Part shown: piece after piece, positions 4,316 to 10,834 of the stretch
Position numbering within the stretch: position 1 is the stretch's first letter
Layout of the letters: each line of letters starts with the position of its first letter
Source: Fimbriimonadales bacterium
GTDB lineage: Bacteria > Armatimonadota > Fimbriimonadia > Fimbriimonadales > ATM1
Length of the DNA stretch: 24,536 nt
Assembly: GCA_041744215.1 (NCBI GenBank)
Contig: JBGTLG010000024.1
Location: 1 to 24,536, forward strand
Reading direction: 5' to 3'
The notes under the pieces: generated by a model
Told to the model about the DNA's origin: nothing
The model's database searches: none
What the model saw: the letters and a program-made list of their open reading frames with translations, nothing else
Translations under genes and position numbers: made by a program

Positions 4316-5174
4316 GAAACTGCTCTGCAGCGTCGACGACATTCGAAAGCAGCATCGCTACAGTCATTGGTCCGACCCCGCCGGGCACTGGGGTTATCCA
4401 TTCTGCGCGTTGGCAAGTAGGCGCGAATTCAACGTCGCCGACATCCGTGTCACGTCCTTCGACGCGATTGTATCCTGCGTCGAGAATGACTGCCCCTTCC
4501 TTAATCCAGTCGCCCTTTATCATTTCAGCGCGTCCCACTGCGGCGACGAGGATGTCGGCCGTTCGGCAAATATCGGGCAGGTCCCGGGTCTTGCTGTGAC
4601 AGATCGTCACCGTCGCATTTCTTTCGAGCAGCATAAGCGCGGCAGGCTTGCCAAGAATCACACTTCTTCCGACGACCACAGCATTCTTGCCTTCGCAGTC
4701 GATCCCGTATTCTTCAAGGATACGCATCATGCCAAGAGGGGTGGCGCACCGAAAACCCTTTGCGCCGCAAACGAGGAGCCCGAGCGATTCTGGCGTCATT
4801 CCGTCGACGTCTTTGTTTGCACCGAGTGCGATAAGGGCTGCCTCTTCATCGAGATGTTTTGGTAAGGGATGTTGGACAAGAACGCCGTGCACGCTTGGGT
4901 TTGCGTTGAGTTCATGAATCTTATCTATGACCCAGCTTTGCGATGTTGTTCCGTCGATCGAATAAGACTCGCCGGTGATTCCAATCGCTTCTGCCCATCG
5001 GTGCTTCATTTGGACGTAGGCGAGGCTTGCGGGATCGTCGGCAGCAACGAGCACGTCGAGGCGCGGCGTGACTCCCTTCGAAGCCAGCGCAGCGACACGT
5101 GATTTCAGTTCTTCGCGAACTCGTCTCGACAGAGTTCGACCGTCAAGCAATTTACTCTTCGACTTCGTCTCCAT
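4308..5174 (-). CDS. folD: Bifunctional methylenetetrahydrofolate dehydrogenase/cyclohydrolase
   Basis: ASLAYVQMK, VHGVLVQHPLP, KDVDG, VVGRSVILGKP, ITPVPGGVGPMT motifs. Confidence 0.97.
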   Translation of the reverse strand: METKSKSKLLDGRTLSRRVREELKSRVAALASKGVTPRLDVLVAADDPASLAYVQMKHRWAEAIGITGESYSIDGTTSQSWVIDKIHELNANPSVHGVLVQHPLPKHLDEEAALIALGANKDVDGMTPESLGLLVCGAKGFRCATPLGMMRILEEYGIDCEGKNAVVVGRSVILGKPAALMLLERNATVTICHSKTRDLPDICRTADILVAAVGRAEMIKGDWIKEGAVILDAGYNRVEGRDTDVGDVEFAPTCQRAEWITPVPGGVGPMTVAMLLSNVVDAAEQFRN

Positions 5175-5592
5175 GCACTTTCAGTCCTTCGTGCTTGACA
5201 AGGTTGCCAAGGATACCGTTGACGAATGATCCGCTCGCTTCCGTGCTGTACTTTTTCGCCAAGTCTACTGCTTCGTTGATTGCGACCGCGGGCGGCACAT
5301 CTTGCACGTTGAGAATCTCAAAAACTGCGATTCGGAGTATGGCAAGGTCAACTGCAGCCAGGCGGTCGAGCGTATAGCCTTCGGCGAGCGATTCGATTCT
5401 TGCGTCAATATCAACTCTTCCGCTCTGCACGCCATTTACTAAGTCTGTTGCATACGCCTTTAGGTCATCGGACAGGTCGCGTCCTGAGACGGCTCCTGAA
5501 AGACCATCCTCCAAAGTCTGATCGCCTACCGACATCCCATATAGTGCTTTGAGTGCAACTTCGCGCGCCTTTCGTCTTGACTTAGACGCCAC
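5152..5592 (-). CDS. nusB: Transcription antitermination factor NusB
   Basis: RRKAREVALKALY, DLAILR, VAINEAVDLAKKYS, FVNGILG; GAGG RBS before GTG. Confidence 0.95.
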   Translation of the reverse strand: MASKSRRKAREVALKALYGMSVGDQTLEDGLSGAVSGRDLSDDLKAYATDLVNGVQSGRVDIDARIESLAEGYTLDRLAAVDLAILRIAVFEILNVQDVPPAVAINEAVDLAKKYSTEASGSFVNGILGNLVKHEGLKVHGDEVEE

Positions 5593-6943
5593 TAGCTACC
5601 TCAGTCATGATGCGGGACACCCATTTCGTGTCGACGTCGCCGCTAACGTAGTCTGGGTGGCGCACCAACGTGCGGAGGAACGGGATGTTTGTCGAGACGC
5701 CTTCGACTTGGAAGTTGTCAAGTGCAGCCTCAAGTTTTTCGACTGCGTCGGCCCGATCTTTACCGGTAACTATGAGTTTTGCAATCATAGGATCATAGAA
5801 GGGCGAAATGACGACACCGGAATCAACGTAAGTCTCGACGCGGATATGGTCGTCTTTCGGCGGACTCCACTTTGCAATTGTGCCGCAGCTCGGAGCGAAG
5901 TCTTTGCTCGGATCTTGGGCGGTGATCCTTGCTTCGATGGAATGCCCTTTCCATTCGACATCTTCCTGCGAAAATGCGAGTTCTTCACCCGCTGCAATTC
6001 GCAACATCGCTTGGACAATGTCGATGCCGGTAACCTGTTCTGTGACAGGATGCTCCACTTGCAGACGCGTATTCATTTCGATGAAGTAGTACTCGCCCGA
6101 CGCATCCATCAAAAACTCGATTGTTCCTGCATTGACATACCCGACCGACTTTGCAAGACGTACTGCCGCTTCGCCCATACCTCGTCTGGTTGTTGGGTCT
6201 ATTCCAGCAAAAGGCGCCTCCTCGATCATCTTTTGGTGACGCAGATTTTGAACTGAGCACTCGCGCTCGCCGAGGCTGACGCAGTTACCGTACGCATCAG
6301 CAATGATTTGGATCTCGACATGGCGAGGGTTGTCGATACACTTTTCGAGGTACATATCACCATTGCCGAAAGATGCCTCCGCTTCTTGGCTTGCCATTTG
6401 CAGAAGTCTCGGGAGCTCATCTGCGGACTCTACACGACGGATTCCGCGACCGCCCCCCCCGGCGACCGCCTTCAACAAGACTGGGTATCCGAACTGATCT
6501 GCGAGTTCGAGCGCATGCTGCTCGCTTTCGATTAGGCCCTCGGATCCAGGAACGACAGGGCAGTTCGCGTTGATCGCCGCGGTACGCGCGGCTGATTTAT
6601 CCCCCATCACGGACATCGCGTCTACGGGCGGCCCAATGAACTTCATGCCAAGCGCTTGCAGCGCGTCCGCAAACTGCTCTTGTTCACTGAAGTATCCATA
6701 TCCGGGATGGACAGCCTCTGCGCCGCTCGTGACTCCAGCCATCAGTACATTCGCCATGTTAAGGTAGCTCTGTTGATTCGGCCCGGGACCTATGCATATT
6801 GCTTCGTCTGCGAGTCGCACATGTTGGCTGTCTCTGTCCGCCTCGCTGTAAACCGCAACTGCGCGTACCCCAAGTTCATGACATGCGCGAATGATCCTGA
6901 CAGCGATCTCGCCTCGATTTGCGACGAGAACTTTCTTAAACAT
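5582..6943 (-). CDS. accC: Biotin carboxylase subunit of acetyl-CoA carboxylase, 453 aa
   Basis: ANRGEIA, HPGYG, KAVAGGGGRG, RHVEIQ, FIEMNTRLQVEHPVTE, YDPMIAKLI. ATG 6943 overlaps the upstream stop (TGATG). Confidence 0.95.
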   Translation of the reverse strand: MFKKVLVANRGEIAVRIIRACHELGVRAVAVYSEADRDSQHVRLADEAICIGPGPNQQSYLNMANVLMAGVTSGAEAVHPGYGYFSEQEQFADALQALGMKFIGPPVDAMSVMGDKSAARTAAINANCPVVPGSEGLIESEQHALELADQFGYPVLLKAVAGGGGRGIRRVESADELPRLLQMASQEAEASFGNGDMYLEKCIDNPRHVEIQIIADAYGNCVSLGERECSVQNLRHQKMIEEAPFAGIDPTTRRGMGEAAVRLAKSVGYVNAGTIEFLMDASGEYYFIEMNTRLQVEHPVTEQVTGIDIVQAMLRIAAGEELAFSQEDVEWKGHSIEARITAQDPSKDFAPSCGTIAKWSPPKDDHIRVETYVDSGVVISPFYDPMIAKLIVTGKDRADAVEKLEAALDNFQVEGVSTNIPFLRTLVRHPDYVSGDVDTKWVSRIMTEVASGV

Positions 6944-7314
6944 CAAATGTCCTCATGTCCTGGATGAGGACATTTGACGATTTGGGTTGGGGGACTGTAT
7001 TCGTAGGCTTCCTTGCCAACTGGGCATTGGAGCATTCTGGACGGCAGGGAGAGTTCAGTCAGTGAGTTAGGAATGACATCATCAATCTTCTGCATCTGGA
7101 TCGCGGCGCGAACCTGCCCAAGATAGTTTGAACATTCGAAATCCTTCGCCTTGAGCGCTGCGCGTCCCACTGTGGTCTTCCCAAGCCCGTCGGGCCGGTC
7201 GCTGTCGGGCTTGCCGAATCCGCCGCCGAGGTATACGGCAGCGAGAATGCCTATGATCGCAACTACTACGATCAGCTCGATTAGCATATGTCCGGCGGCT
7301 TTGTGTCTTTTCAT
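6943..7314 (-). CDS. Small prepilin-like protein (type IV pilin/pseudopilin N-terminus), 123 aa
   Basis: Basic leader MKRHKAAG followed by HMLIELIVVVAIIGILAAV (Glu at +5); C-terminal CPVG..YEY...VKCPHPGH; start/stop overlaps with both neighbours. Confidence 0.8.
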   Translation of the reverse strand: MKRHKAAGHMLIELIVVVAIIGILAAVYLGGGFGKPDSDRPDGLGKTTVGRAALKAKDFECSNYLGQVRAAIQMQKIDDVIPNSLTELSLPSRMLQCPVGKEAYEYSPPTQIVKCPHPGHEDI

Positions 7315-7715
7315 GGTCGAATCCTTGCGATTGCCTGACCATATTCTACAGGCTGTCCATCCTCGACGAGAAGTTCATCAAGTGTTCCTACTGATCCCGC
7401 AGAGATTTCGTTCGGTAAACCAAGCGCTTCTATGATTCCGATGACCGTGTCGGGGGCGACTTGTGTTCCCTCTTCGACGCCTGAAGGCGCGGATCGAAAG
7501 AATCCGACCATCGCGCTTCGCACAACGACATCCGTTGCGGAAAGCTCTGTTCCTGGCACATCAGCACAGAGAATCGGTTCTGAATGGAGAGGTGTGTTTG
7601 CAGGCAGTTCGAGGCGCAGGCTCGCGTCTCCTTCACGGATACGGACAGCGGTTAGGCCGTGCCTCTTCGCTGCAAGGACGATGCCTTCGATGGTGTCAAT
7701 ATCATATCCACTCAT
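7311..7715 (-). CDS. AccB/BCCP-like biotinyl-domain protein lacking the biotin-accepting lysine, 134 aa
   Basis: AccB-like N-terminus, VRSAMVGFF and LVEDGQPVEYGQAIARI, but EALGL where BCCP has EAMKM; upstream of accC. Confidence 0.85.
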   Translation of the reverse strand: MSGYDIDTIEGIVLAAKRHGLTAVRIREGDASLRLELPANTPLHSEPILCADVPGTELSATDVVVRSAMVGFFRSAPSGVEEGTQVAPDTVIGIIEALGLPNEISAGSVGTLDELLVEDGQPVEYGQAIARIRP

Positions 7716-8854
7716 ATCTTCAGCTTGAAGACGCAGAACTCAACAACCTTCATCATTTGAGCGAACACGAAGAGAAGGATTGCAAACAACACGAACTCTT
7801 CGAGCAGTCCGGGGTCGCCCGCAGCCGCCGTTTGGACTACCTCTGTCGCTCCTTCGGAGCTGAAGGTAAAGCGGCTCATCAGCTTGTCAAAGTCACCTAC
7901 GAGACCTTGCGTCCAAACCAGGAGTCCTGGCCTCAAAGCCAGATAGAACAAGACCATTGCCAGCGGCACTGCCCACGTTAGCAGCTTGTACTTTTGCCGC
8001 TGATGCTCGTTGTAGATGACGCACTGACGGCAACGCTCTGCTTTCTGCCCGGCGGTCAACGTCTTGTTGTAAGGGATGAATTTCGCGGCTGCGACGGCAT
8101 CCTTAGGGATAACCGTTCCAGACATTGCTCCGTGGATGACTTCTTCTTCGCACATGCACCCAACCCGCTCTCGCCAACAGCATCTTCTTGAATGGTAGAT
8201 AGGGCATTGCTCGCGGACAAACTTGCGGCAGAACGGCAACTGCCAGCACTTGCCCATGAAGACGTTTCTGTAGTCGTAGTCTTCCCTGACGCCGGATCCG
8301 TACTTCATCAGAGTTTCTTTCGATCCGAACAGGGTTCTATTGCGAATTCGAATGATGATGTCTGCGACTTGTAGGATGACTGCTGCTATGCCCAGTATGA
8401 GGCCGCCGAGCTTCAGAGAGAATAGGGCACGCCCGACCATATCCCAACTCTCGATGCTGGTTTCACGATAGCCGATGACTGCGTCGAGCCACCAGTTCGA
8501 AGTAAAGAAAACGGTCGCGACAATAAAGAGGGTTACGGGCAGCGCAATATCTCCCCAGAACATGAGCGCCATCCCGGCTCCGAAGAGAATCAGCCCCGCA
8601 ATGAGAGCTATCTGCCCCCATTGCACCATTGCGGTCCCGTCCTTGAGCGCCTGAATACCGGCGGTGTCGCTTGGTGCAGCCGTCACCCAGTTGCTGCCGA
8701 AATAGTAGGTGACGTAGATTAAGACGCCTGTCGCCAAGAGCGACATGACGATCCCGACAATCAGGACCTTTCCACCGGCCCATTCGATTATGTTCGCGAA
8801 CCAGTCTTCTTTGAGCTGGGCCGGACCGGGAGCGGAGACAGGGTTCTTCGCCAT
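7712..8854 (-). CDS. Multi-pass membrane protein with a central Cys-rich (two-CW-like) domain, 380 aa
   Basis: About four N-terminal and two C-terminal hydrophobic segments around KCWQLPFC..CPIY..RCCWRERVGCMC....CRQCVIY; ATGA overlap with the accB-like gene. Confidence 0.8.
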   Translation of the reverse strand: MAKNPVSAPGPAQLKEDWFANIIEWAGGKVLIVGIVMSLLATGVLIYVTYYFGSNWVTAAPSDTAGIQALKDGTAMVQWGQIALIAGLILFGAGMALMFWGDIALPVTLFIVATVFFTSNWWLDAVIGYRETSIESWDMVGRALFSLKLGGLILGIAAVILQVADIIIRIRNRTLFGSKETLMKYGSGVREDYDYRNVFMGKCWQLPFCRKFVREQCPIYHSRRCCWRERVGCMCEEEVIHGAMSGTVIPKDAVAAAKFIPYNKTLTAGQKAERCRQCVIYNEHQRQKYKLLTWAVPLAMVLFYLALRPGLLVWTQGLVGDFDKLMSRFTFSSEGATEVVQTAAAGDPGLLEEFVLFAILLFVFAQMMKVVEFCVFKLKI

Positions 8855-8866
8855 CGAGTTTCCGAG

Positions 8867-9436
8867 TTAAGCAGAAGAGACGCGCTCGAGGTATGTGTCG
8901 GTTCGAGTATCGACCTTGATCACGTCTCCTACCGCGATATGGAAGGGTACCGCGATGGTGGCGCCGCTTTCCAAGACGGCTGGCTTGTTGCCTCCGCTCA
9001 CGGTGTCGCCTTTGAATGCGGGGTCCGTTTCAGCGATTTTCATTTCGACAAAGGTGGGTACTTCGATTCCGCTTACTGTACCGTCGACGGTCGTCGCCGT
9101 AACGGTCATTCCTTCGGTGAGGTACTTAGCGCCGTCGCCAAACATCTCGATTGGGTAGTCGGCCTGGTCGTAGTCTTCGGAGTCCATGCAGGTGACCGAG
9201 TCACCGGAGCGATAGAGAAACTGCATTTGTTTCTGCTCGATTCTGGCGGGTTCAAACCTCTCGCCTGCTCGGAAGGTCTTCTCAATCGATTGGCCGGATT
9301 TGAGCTTTTTGAGTTTGGTGCGTACGAACGCGCCGCCCTTTCCTGGCTTGACGTGCTGGAACTCAACGACCTTGTAAACCTCTCCATCGAGGTAGATCGC
9401 CATACCGGTTCGAAAATCGCTAGTATCAATAGACAT
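8867..9436 (-). CDS. efp: Translation elongation factor P
   Basis: HVKPGKGGAFVRTKLK, KGDTVSGGNKPA, IKVDTR..Y motifs; TATACT at 9456-9451, 14 nt upstream of the ATG. Confidence 0.97.
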   Translation of the reverse strand: MSIDTSDFRTGMAIYLDGEVYKVVEFQHVKPGKGGAFVRTKLKKLKSGQSIEKTFRAGERFEPARIEQKQMQFLYRSGDSVTCMDSEDYDQADYPIEMFGDGAKYLTEGMTVTATTVDGTVSGIEVPTFVEMKIAETDPAFKGDTVSGGNKPAVLESGATIAVPFHIAVGDVIKVDTRTDTYLERVSSA

Positions 9437-9701: not shown

Positions 9702-10652
9702 CTATTGCAGATCCCAGATGTAGGACTCTCTATCAAAGATAAAGCCGCCCCACGCGTTTCGGACATCGCACCCAGCGGTGATCCGGTCGATTCGAAGTGG
9801 CTTCGAGTGGCCGTCCAGGAAGGAGACCGTCACGACGCCTTCGTTGCGGCGGGTCCAGGTTTGGGCACCCATCGCCTTGCTGGCGAGGTGATACGGGAAC
9901 GCTCCTCCGAACGTATTCCAGGCCGTTGGAGAGGTCGGGTTCCAGCCGCCAAACCACCAGATTCCGAGAACGCCACCGATGGCTGGGAATGAGTTCTCGC
10001 CGCCTGTGTAGAACCGGCAGGGAGGATCAAGCGCCCAGTTACCGCCGTCTACCGGCGCACCATTGGAGGGTGCACGATCCCAGATCGAGTCAAGGATCGC
10101 GATCGTCTCAGATGGTTGGGCCACCCGAGACATGTTGATTGCCGCCGGGCCATCTTGGGGGAGGCCCGTGCATCGGTTGATGGCGGTGGTGTAGCGGACC
10201 ATCGGCGCCAGGTACTGGGAGTTTAGGCCGTGATTGGCCTTGGTAGTCCAGTTGAAGTACCTCTCTCGCTGGTTGGCACCCGGCGCGCCCGTTATGGGGT
10301 CTCTGTCGAGGCCACGGTCGGTCGCGTTCGGGTCAGACGGACAACGCGTGTACTTGATGTTGGCGATGTACGGCTGCATATCCAGAATCCAGTTGCTCTG
10401 CTCTGGATTGCTTCCCGTACAGTGGGTGATGCTGCATGGGCAGTAGTTCACCAACGGCATATGATCGTCCCAGTCCCCGAAGTACAGGTGGAACGCCTTG
10501 GAGACTCCGTTGAAGTTGCTGAGGCAGCTGGTCTTTTTGGCCGCTTCCTTTGCCTGCGCAAAGACAGGGAACAGGATGGCAGCCAAGATCGCGATGATCG
10601 CGATGACTACGAGCAGTTCTATAAGGGTAAACCCCTTCTTACTTGATTGCAT
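9702..10652 (-). CDS. Prepilin-type N-terminal cleavage/methylation domain protein (DUF1559/H-X9-DG-like), 316 aa
   Basis: [47 protein letters not shown] and C-terminal [17 protein letters not shown] before ATG 10652. Confidence 0.9.
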
Positions 10653-10834
10653 CTCACACCTCCGGGGCTTCCAGCCCCAAAAGAATTGCTCCCCGTTCAA
10701 CGCCACGGGGCGCTTAACATCAATATAACAGAAAAATAGCGAATCCGGTCATAGATTTTTTGCAAAACTTTGGAGGCACCTACTTGCCCTTTCACCACGT
10801 AATATGTCTGGAAACACCCTTTGGAGGGATGACG

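Follow-up and report, generated by a model that had tools for sequence, protein, structure and literature searches.

The 24,536-nucleotide contig JBGTLG010000024.1 of a Fimbriimonadales bacterium (Armatimonadota; NCBI assembly GCA_041744215.1), analysed here at its full length and referred to as the window, carries on its minus strand a gene for an AccB homologue that lacks the biotinyl-lysine. AccB is the biotin carboxyl carrier protein (BCCP) of acetyl-CoA carboxylase (ACC), and the lysine-less paralogue is termed AccB2. The window (contig C24) is part of a genome of 2.68 Mb that is 93% complete, and its DNA is present in hot-spring metagenome runs; no RNA run was listed for positions 5582-9436. 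The minus-strand gene order is efp, a gene for a Cys-rich membrane protein, accB2, a prepilin-like gene, accC and two open reading frames (ORFs) that are taken to be nusB and folD (Table 1). Where BCCP has E-A-M-K-M, bases 7430-7416 of accB2 read GAA GCG CTT GGT TTA, or E-A-L-G-L, and the sole lysine of the protein, K17, lies outside the biotinyl domain. The gene is joined to both neighbours by ATGA overlaps: at 7715-7712 the stop of the upstream membrane-protein gene overlaps the accB2 start, and at 7314-7311 the start of the downstream gene overlaps the accB2 end. A preliminary description of this DNA had listed these features, and all were found again in the bases and the translation. It had also placed the gene at the normal accB position near accC; the gene is near accC but is not directly adjacent to it, as the prepilin-like gene intervenes.

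Table 1. Genes of the accB2 locus and features of the AccB2 protein, in positions of the window
Feature	Position	Strand	Basis or remark
AccB2 (Lys-less AccB paralogue), 134 amino acids plus stop	7311..7715	-	open ORF, ATG start, translation
N-terminal AccB module, residues 1-36	7608..7715	-	helix 6-18, strands 23-28 and 31-36 (model)
Flexible linker, residues 37-62	7530..7607	-	predicted local distance difference test (pLDDT) score <50 at 44-47 and 49-54; gappy, unconserved alignment columns
Pseudo-biotinyl domain, residues 63-134, short thumb	7314..7529	-	Foldseek fold matches
V70-G71, invariant	7503..7508	-	within modelled AccC interface
E-A-L-G-L in place of E-A-M-K-M	7416..7430	-	G99 occupies the biotinyl-Lys position
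P-V-E-Y-G-Q, residues 122-127	7335..7352	-	conserved surface; contacts AccC in model
efp	8867..9436	-	EFP_N, EFP and Elong-fact-P_C domains; indicates the ancestral gene order efp-accB-accC
Cys-rich membrane protein, 380 amino acids	7712..8854	-	upstream of AccB2, ATGA-joined
Prepilin-like gene, 123 amino acids	6943..7314	-	between AccB2 and accC
accC (biotin carboxylase)	5582..6946	-	NF006367, 640 bits (cut-off 597)
nusB-like ORF	5152..5592	-	downstream of accC; position kept in relatives

The ORF had been described as intact, with an AccB-like amino terminus and a beta-sandwich, and profile comparisons and a predicted structure agree with this. The Pfam model Biotin_lipoyl (PF00364) matches residues 65-132 of AccB2 with 36.1 bits, above the cut-off of 22.1. 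The best NCBIfam model is the BCCP family TIGR00531, which is also the family matched by 29/29 members of the AccB2 family (best E 9.1e-19); the score of AccB2 itself, 57.9 bits, is far under the cut-off of 115.2. Positions 3-128 of the AccB2 family profile align with full-length E. coli BCCP (4hr7_B, residues 20-175) at E 1.4e-21. Comparison by hhalign of the AccB2 family with canonical BCCPs of the same order gives a probability of 99.8% over 130 columns (3-132), the amino terminus included. The first of these alignments has a gap that coincides with the E. coli thumb, and the gap recurs in the second. The shortened thumb that had been reported is also seen in the spacer: from the V-G of strand 1 to the glutamate of the motif it is 25 residues long in AccB2 versus 30 in the canonical BCCP of the same genome; the 30-residue spacer is found as well in 10/10 BCCPs from other phyla. 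The AlphaFold2 model of AccB2 has a mean pLDDT of 84.6, with values of 91-98 in the beta-sandwich, and Foldseek aligns the sandwich with 1bdo (template modelling score on the target, 0.84) and with 4hr7_G (0.86, root mean square deviation 1.9).

AccB2 therefore retains the amino-terminal alpha/beta/beta module, the linker and a biotinyl-fold domain with the PVEYGQ, V-G and A-L surface. In E. coli BCCP the first 30 residues form an alpha/beta/beta motif that is proposed to oligomerise in the centre of the ACC filament tube (PMC11160672). The thumb is reported to be essential in E. coli (Cronan 2001, as cited in PMC11926652). Without the lysine and most of the thumb, AccB2 cannot carry CO2 or act as a carboxyl carrier.

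It had been suggested that the true carrier is encoded elsewhere or fused to another subunit. The first of these holds. Searched with PF00364, the genome yielded seven matches, among them a canonical free BCCP of 145 amino acids with thumb and lysine (EAMKV) on contig C30 (G000:C30:88690-89124), which carries ...MVGTYYRRPIPSDPPFVEVGDRITIGQVIGVIEAMKVFNE...; a carrier fused to another subunit is unnecessary given this free protein. The other matches include AccB2, two weak ones in long proteins, and long proteins on C40 and C25 that are taken, from their length, to be lipoyl E2 subunits. A free-standing biotinyl protein of 149 amino acids with the motif LEAMKME is encoded on contig C10 (G000:C10:3251-6451), after a biotin-carboxylase-like gene and before an ORF taken to be hydroxymethylglutaryl-CoA-lyase-like. 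Because it is placed between its own biotin-carboxylase-like gene and this ORF, the C10 protein is read as part of a catabolic acyl-CoA carboxylase; it looks like a split alpha subunit of the methylcrotonyl-CoA type. The accA and accD genes are adjacent on C33, both over their cut-offs, and birA lies on C26. With a full ACC set and a normal carrier in the genome, AccB2 is an extra, Lys-less AccB. Among the genomes of the order, the canonical BCCP query finds matches in 40/41, the single miss being a genome that is 65% complete, and the canonical copies that were read have the lysine in 30/30 loci (EAMKV in 27, EANKV in two and EAMKT in one).

AccB2 is just as widespread in Fimbriimonadales. 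The AccB2 query matches 41/41 genomes of the order, spread over five families, and the site reads x-x-L-G-[LI] in 30/30 orthologous loci, taken one per genome from 30 genomes. The best matches of the other 11 genomes stand outside this tally, and three later ones (L127, L132 and L135) agree with it. An unpublished genome, G011, counts as one genome in the tallies of 41 and as two rows (L027 and L058) in the locus and motif tallies; no claim depends on it alone. The variants of the site include EALGL, ESLGL, ETLGL, AALGL, VALGI, FALGI and VSLGL. The preliminary description had raised conservation of an E-x-L-G motif, and this is found in part: the L-G is invariant in the alignment of 29 AccB2 proteins, but the leading E is not kept, as AALGL, VALGI and FALGI occur. 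The invariant columns of the alignment are M1, V70, G71, L98 and G99, so that the residues that replace Met-Lys are themselves fixed. A base error had been considered unable to explain the missing lysine, and the presence of L-G-[LI] in all 30 loci rules out both sequencing error and chance at the site.

Selection on the gene was assessed from the ratio of nonsynonymous to synonymous substitutions (dN/dS) by the Nei-Gojobori method (NG86). The Lys-less copies give values of 0.11-0.29 in 5/6 close pairs, the sixth being saturated; for canonical BCCPs, compared between the same or similar pairs of genomes, the range is 0.07-0.14 in 4/5, the fifth being saturated. AccB2 is, on these sequence comparisons, under purifying selection and is not a decaying gene; a pseudogene is ruled out by the intact frames, the invariant L98 and G99 and the dN/dS values. 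Close relatives that keep AMKM, together with relaxed selection on this copy, had been named as grounds for rejecting a functional gene, and the opposite is found on both counts. The protein is also found far more widely. Among 1.84 billion cluster representatives (50% identity), the AccB2 profile finds 37 matches at E <= 1e-30. The best 150 representatives all score at least 109 bits, and their lysine column holds G in 145, E in one, D in one and K in three, which leaves 147 that are Lys-less.

The AccB2 profile matches 120 genomes in a sample of 121 from Armatimonadota, and 118 of these have at least two matches. The cluster efp-(membrane protein)-AccB2-prepilin-like-accC-nusB recurs across the phylum. 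A motif survey read one or two loci per Armatimonadota family, two families (f4 and f19) being unreadable. The lysine of the operon copy is missing in 27/39 families and kept in 11/39, and one family (f8) is mixed, with ESLRV and ESLKI. Lys-less motifs are of the form xALG[LI] in Fimbriimonadales. Elsewhere they are [QR]AMGL, ESMR[LI], ESLRV, EALRI, ETMRL, EAMRV, EALAL, EAMGI, ESMGM, ESMGI, ESVGL, DALGV, ELMHI, EAMSV and ESMNI. The families that retain the lysine have ESMKL, ESLKV, EAMKV, EAIKL, ESMKQ or ESMKI. The Lys-less AccB of this locus is real, as first described, but it is not an isolated oddity: it belongs to a large family in which the lysine has been lost in several ways. In three loci (L157, L162 and L165, of families f17, f23 and f27) the motif is EALGK or EALRK, with a lysine shifted one place on and a spacer of thumb length. 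One further locus (L151, G047:C26:10500-17700) has in a single cluster efp, a thumbless EAMKV copy, accC, nusB and a thumb-bearing EAMKV copy. This arrangement is possibly a picture of the state before the loss of the lysine.

The two paralogues differ in a complementary manner when motifs are counted by genomic context. Among 69 copies in operon context the lysine column holds G in 44, K in 11, R in 11 and A, H and N in one each. Position 125 is aromatic in 69/69 of these copies, and [EQ][YFW]G[QT] is found in 62/69. Of 44 copies situated elsewhere, K is present in 43, the 30-residue thumb spacer in 42 and an aromatic residue at 125 in only three. The sole K-less copy in this second group (L036) has a membrane-protein gene alongside and is really an operon copy. 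BCCPs of other phyla combine lysine, thumb and an aromatic residue at 125 in 10/10, with Q127 in 7/10. The canonical features are thus divided between the paralogues, each of which has kept its own half. These tallies are dominated by Fimbriimonadales, and their rows are not independent events. In a tree of both paralogues, built with the motif columns excluded, canonical copies group with the BCCPs of other phyla (51 rows, all K; Shimodaira-Hasegawa-like approximate likelihood ratio test support 84). The K/no-K character requires 10 changes on this tree, at least two of which are forced by well-supported branches. As 57 of its 121 inner branches are open, the tree was used for the grouping and for the K/no-K changes only.

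Lys-less AccB copies also occur in Chloroflexota. Pattern scans of species genomes detected, immediately upstream of accC in Limnocylindrales, a Lys-less copy that reads ...HVDVLGVRHEV..., and Lys-less and canonical EAMK[LV] copies are both present in 4/4 Limnocylindrales genomes and in one Chthonomonas metagenome-assembled genome (MAG). In one Limnocylindrales genome (G044, contig C14; loci L087 and L111) the genes are, in order, those for a sigma factor, accD, accA, the Lys-less copy (VDVLGV), accC, a fabZ-like gene of the FabA/FabZ type, a metallophosphoesterase gene, a fabF-like KAS I/II gene, the canonical BCCP gene (EAMKL) and a fabH-like KAS III gene, and the cluster from accD to fabH is all on one strand. 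No pilin-like or membrane-protein gene was found in this accD-accA-accC cluster. The Limnocylindrales cluster links Lys-less AccB to ACC and to the synthesis of fatty acids without recourse to the unusual neighbours seen in Armatimonadota. Of 61 Chloroflexota genomes sampled, 27 match the Limnocylindrales protein. Thirty Chloroflexota loci (L196-L216 among them) comprise 19 without the lysine, nine with it and two that are unreadable, and efp flanks 10 of the 19. The Lys-less motifs are DVLGV, EMLGV, EALAI, EVLGI, QVVNV, QSLNV, ETLNV, ETLRV, EALQV, EAMDI, DTLNH and DTLDH. In the AccB-like genes beside efp, N, Q, D, R, A or G takes the place of the lysine, and PVEYGQ is retained. Two weak relatives were brought in by the pattern EYGQ[AP][IV]A[RK][IV], one from Pantoea coffeiphila (L090, ...QAGPICLPL...) and one from a Margulisbacteria MAG (L091, ...SITSMNIAHD...); neither has a lysine at the aligned site.

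A complex of AccB2 with the neighbouring AccC, which the preliminary description had proposed to model, was predicted from the AccC alignment (27 rows) and the AccB2 alignment. The interaction prediction score from aligned errors (ipSAE) is 0.83 (0.82-0.84 over three runs), and the best of three controls reaches 0.00. Of 157 solved complexes, 116 attain the mark used for ipSAE, as do two of 215 mismatched pairs. Contact agreement between the runs is at least 48%, and the partner pLDDT is at least 70. On the AccC side the modelled interface consists of residues 35, 50-54, 60, 65-66, 68-70, 72-74 and 99, all in the amino-terminal domain; C51, G53 and S60 are invariant in 27 AccC orthologues. On the AccB2 side it consists of residues 69-72, 97-98 and 122-127, with Y125 taking part in most of the least-error pairs. 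The catalytic residues of biotin carboxylase (BC) presumably lie further along the AccC chain than this interface. In the model, then, AccB2 is predicted to dock on the non-catalytic amino-terminal domain of AccC. The prediction passes its controls, but it may echo the solved E. coli BC-BCCP complex. What the complex model shows is that AccB2 appears to have kept a BCCP-like docking face, not binding itself.

AccB2 is interpreted here as a permanently docked, non-catalytic ACC subunit that resembles plant BADC, a reading to which a probability of roughly 45% is given. Made together with AccC, AccB2 would occupy permanently the 'parking' site of BCCP on BC. It would co-assemble with the real BCCP through the amino-terminal module and might hold the BC-BCCP subcomplex, perhaps also the contact between BC and carboxyltransferase, while the real carrier swings between active sites. 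The effect on the enzyme would be positive and structural. The job of carrier would fall to the second, canonical AccB, which has thumb and EAMKV and has lost the PVEYGQ docking surface. Sequence cannot separate a scaffold from an inhibitor. The coupling into the accC unit and the accB-like position within the ACC operon of Limnocylindrales nonetheless favour a stoichiometric subunit over a conditional inhibitor.

Several points weigh against a role as a docked ACC subunit. The predicted binding of AccB2 to AccC comes from a single complex model, and as like complexes have already been solved (4HR7 and 8UXZ), the passing of the model may reflect these and not binding by this copy. The lysine persists in the operon copy of 11 of the 39 Armatimonadota families, so that a biotin-free role is not universal for the operon paralogue. 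The first descriptions of plant BADCs cast them as inhibitors. In addition, a role in ACC explains neither of the conserved neighbours, the prepilin-like protein and the membrane protein.

An alternative, unlikely but resting on evidence that also supports the subunit role, is that AccB2 is a negative regulator that competes with the real BCCP for BC or for the amino-terminal oligomer and so throttles malonyl-CoA synthesis. A protein without the lysine, with a BC-docking surface and the amino-terminal module, that coexists with a real BCCP would suit this function, and abstracts call the BADCs ACCase inhibitors. On the other side, AccB2 is translationally coupled into the accC unit, and the Limnocylindrales copy sits exactly at the accB slot, in the order accD-accA-X-accC. 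The real BCCP has also lost the docking motif, so competition for the same site may not occur, and for the BADCs themselves it is argued that they are assembly 'glue' rather than inhibitors (PMC11926652).

It is improbable that AccB2 is an autoregulator of the operon, whose amino-terminal module would repress the efp-...-accC unit as the amino terminus of E. coli AccB represses accBC. The module is kept and can be aligned with that of E. coli AccB. However, the strongest conservation is C-terminal (V70, G71, L98, G99 and PVEYGQ), in a domain that a pure regulator would not need, and no operator or DNA-binding motif was seen, although no search for one was made.

The neighbouring genes raise another possibility. 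At the 30 loci of the order the gene is flanked by the prepilin-like gene in 29, by accC (one gene off) in 27 and by the membrane-protein gene in 23. The prepilin-like gene is kept at this place in many other Armatimonadota families too. Its product has an N_methyl motif (20.3 bits), seen in 15 of 34 orthologues, and C61, C97 and H120 are invariant and C115 nearly so. The sequence pattern is G-x-x-L-I-E, then a hydrophobic helix and a tail of the form C...CP.G.EPY.YDP.TG.V.CPHPGHE. The AlphaFold2 model of the protein (pLDDT 87.6) has no fold match in PDB at E <= 0.001; the weak rows of the fold search are type IV pilins and small zinc ribbons. The membrane protein encoded at 7712-8854 displays several hydrophobic stretches and cysteines at 203, 209, 217, 225, 226, 233, 235, 275 and 278. 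It has no Pfam or NCBIfam match, and its Atlas clusters are named 'hypothetical protein' alone and are commonest in Armatimonadota.

AccB2 might accordingly have a function unrelated to ACC that it shares with these two neighbours, for example in the cell envelope, the adjacency to accC being a relic of the accB-accC pair. The cluster is kept in most loci of the order and in many other families, and the genes overlap by ATGA. This explanation has only a slim chance of being correct, as the Lys-less copies of Limnocylindrales are placed between accA and accC and have neither a pilin-like nor a membrane-protein gene nearby, and in family f3 of Fimbriimonadales the flanks are without the membrane-protein gene in 6/6 loci. 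Further, the prepilin-type amino terminus predicts an extracytoplasmic protein, whereas AccB2 lacks both a signal peptide and a membrane segment, and the conserved surface of AccB2 is, in the complex model, the one that faces AccC. Finally, that AccB2 is a decaying accB relic without function is very improbable: the score below the TIGR00531 cut-off and an evolution somewhat faster than that of the canonical copy would fit, but no genome read has a broken frame, the L and G of the changed site do not vary, dN/dS is low, and the protein is kept in at least 147 clusters at 50% identity and in all 41 genomes of the order.

A docked, non-catalytic subunit can be compared with several known proteins. 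The bacterial AccB/BCCP (E. coli; 1BDO, 4HR7; TIGR00531) is the best sequence and fold match of AccB2 and has the same three-part build, the same efp-accB-accC-nusB neighbourhood and the same PVEYGQ motif. AccB2 differs from it by G99 in place of Lys at the tip of the hairpin, by Leu for the preceding Met, by a thumb that is five residues shorter and by a score below the equivalog cut-off. Plant BADC1-3 are likewise BCCP paralogues without the biotinyl-lysine that occur alongside a true BCCP and heteromeric ACCase. They are said to bind the BC-BCCP subcomplex (PMC11889953, PMC11926652), and one account describes them as 'glue' or 'cap' for BC-BCCP (PMC11926652). Unlike BADC, AccB2 is bacterial, is encoded in the accC operon and keeps the bacterial AccB amino-terminal module; the loss of the lysine several times within one phylum points to origins parallel to BADC.

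The epsilon subunits of actinobacterial acyl-CoA carboxylases, which are small and not known to be BCCP homologues, resemble AccB2 by role only, in that they are non-catalytic. They are described as 'glue' for assembly of the holoenzyme (PMC11926652). The Bacillus subtilis protein BLAP (1Z6H; NF004547) is also a small free-standing protein of the biotinyl/lipoyl fold and gives weak matches to AccB2. It is a modified carrier by its PDB entry titles ('Biotin/Lipoyl Attachment Protein' and 'BLAP biotinylated-form'), in contrast to the Lys-less AccB2. BLAP keeps its lysine and is not known to have an AccB amino-terminal module, whereas AccB2 has the module. A full-text literature search, whose coverage left most subscription journals outside, found no paper describing a bacterial Lys-less AccB. 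AccB2 is best regarded as an AccB homologue that lacks the hallmarks by which a carrier is defined and, by inference from the analogy, may work like BADC.

It is possible, if on balance doubtful, that in at least two phyla, Armatimonadota and Chloroflexota, the two jobs of E. coli BCCP, docking on BC with oligomerisation and the swinging of biotin between active sites, have been split between two paralogues. A Lys-less anchor made with AccC would fill the non-catalytic BCCP site permanently and, through its amino-terminal module, tether a thumb-bearing carrier without the docking surface. The lysine of the anchor would have been lost repeatedly (to G, R, A, S, H, N, Q or D) once it was unneeded, and plants would have reached the same solution with BADC. 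That each copy has lost motifs which the other keeps suggests the job of each. Lys-less AccB copies are the rule throughout Armatimonadota and common in Chloroflexota. ACC catalyses the committed step of fatty-acid synthesis, is an antibiotic and herbicide target and is a lever for oil yield. The role of plant BADC, as inhibitor or assembly factor, is disputed (PMC11926652). If the jobs of BCCP are split in this way, a few soluble bacterial proteins that could be expressed in E. coli would serve to decide whether look-alike subunits of this kind promote assembly of ACC or inhibit it. Annotation is also affected. Among 11 other K-less clusters (P0002-P0012), the label 'acetyl-CoA carboxylase biotin carboxyl carrier protein' is given by the Joint Genome Institute (JGI) to three, and 'biotin carboxyl carrier protein' to a fourth; judged by sequence, the clusters so named cannot be carriers.

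Of the remaining genes at the locus, accC scores 619 bits against TIGR00514, slightly below the cut-off of 626.5. The accC start is likely the ATG at 6943, which has one base in common with the stop of the upstream gene; the consensus of 27 AccC orthologues begins MFxK. Homologues of the nusB-like ORF come after accC at loci throughout Armatimonadota. Upstream of efp, on the same strand, an ORF of 334 amino acids (9702-10706 of the window) displays a prepilin-type amino terminus and the sequence ...DGHSKPL... close to the C-terminus; it appears to be of a kind common in Planctomycetota and Armatimonadota.

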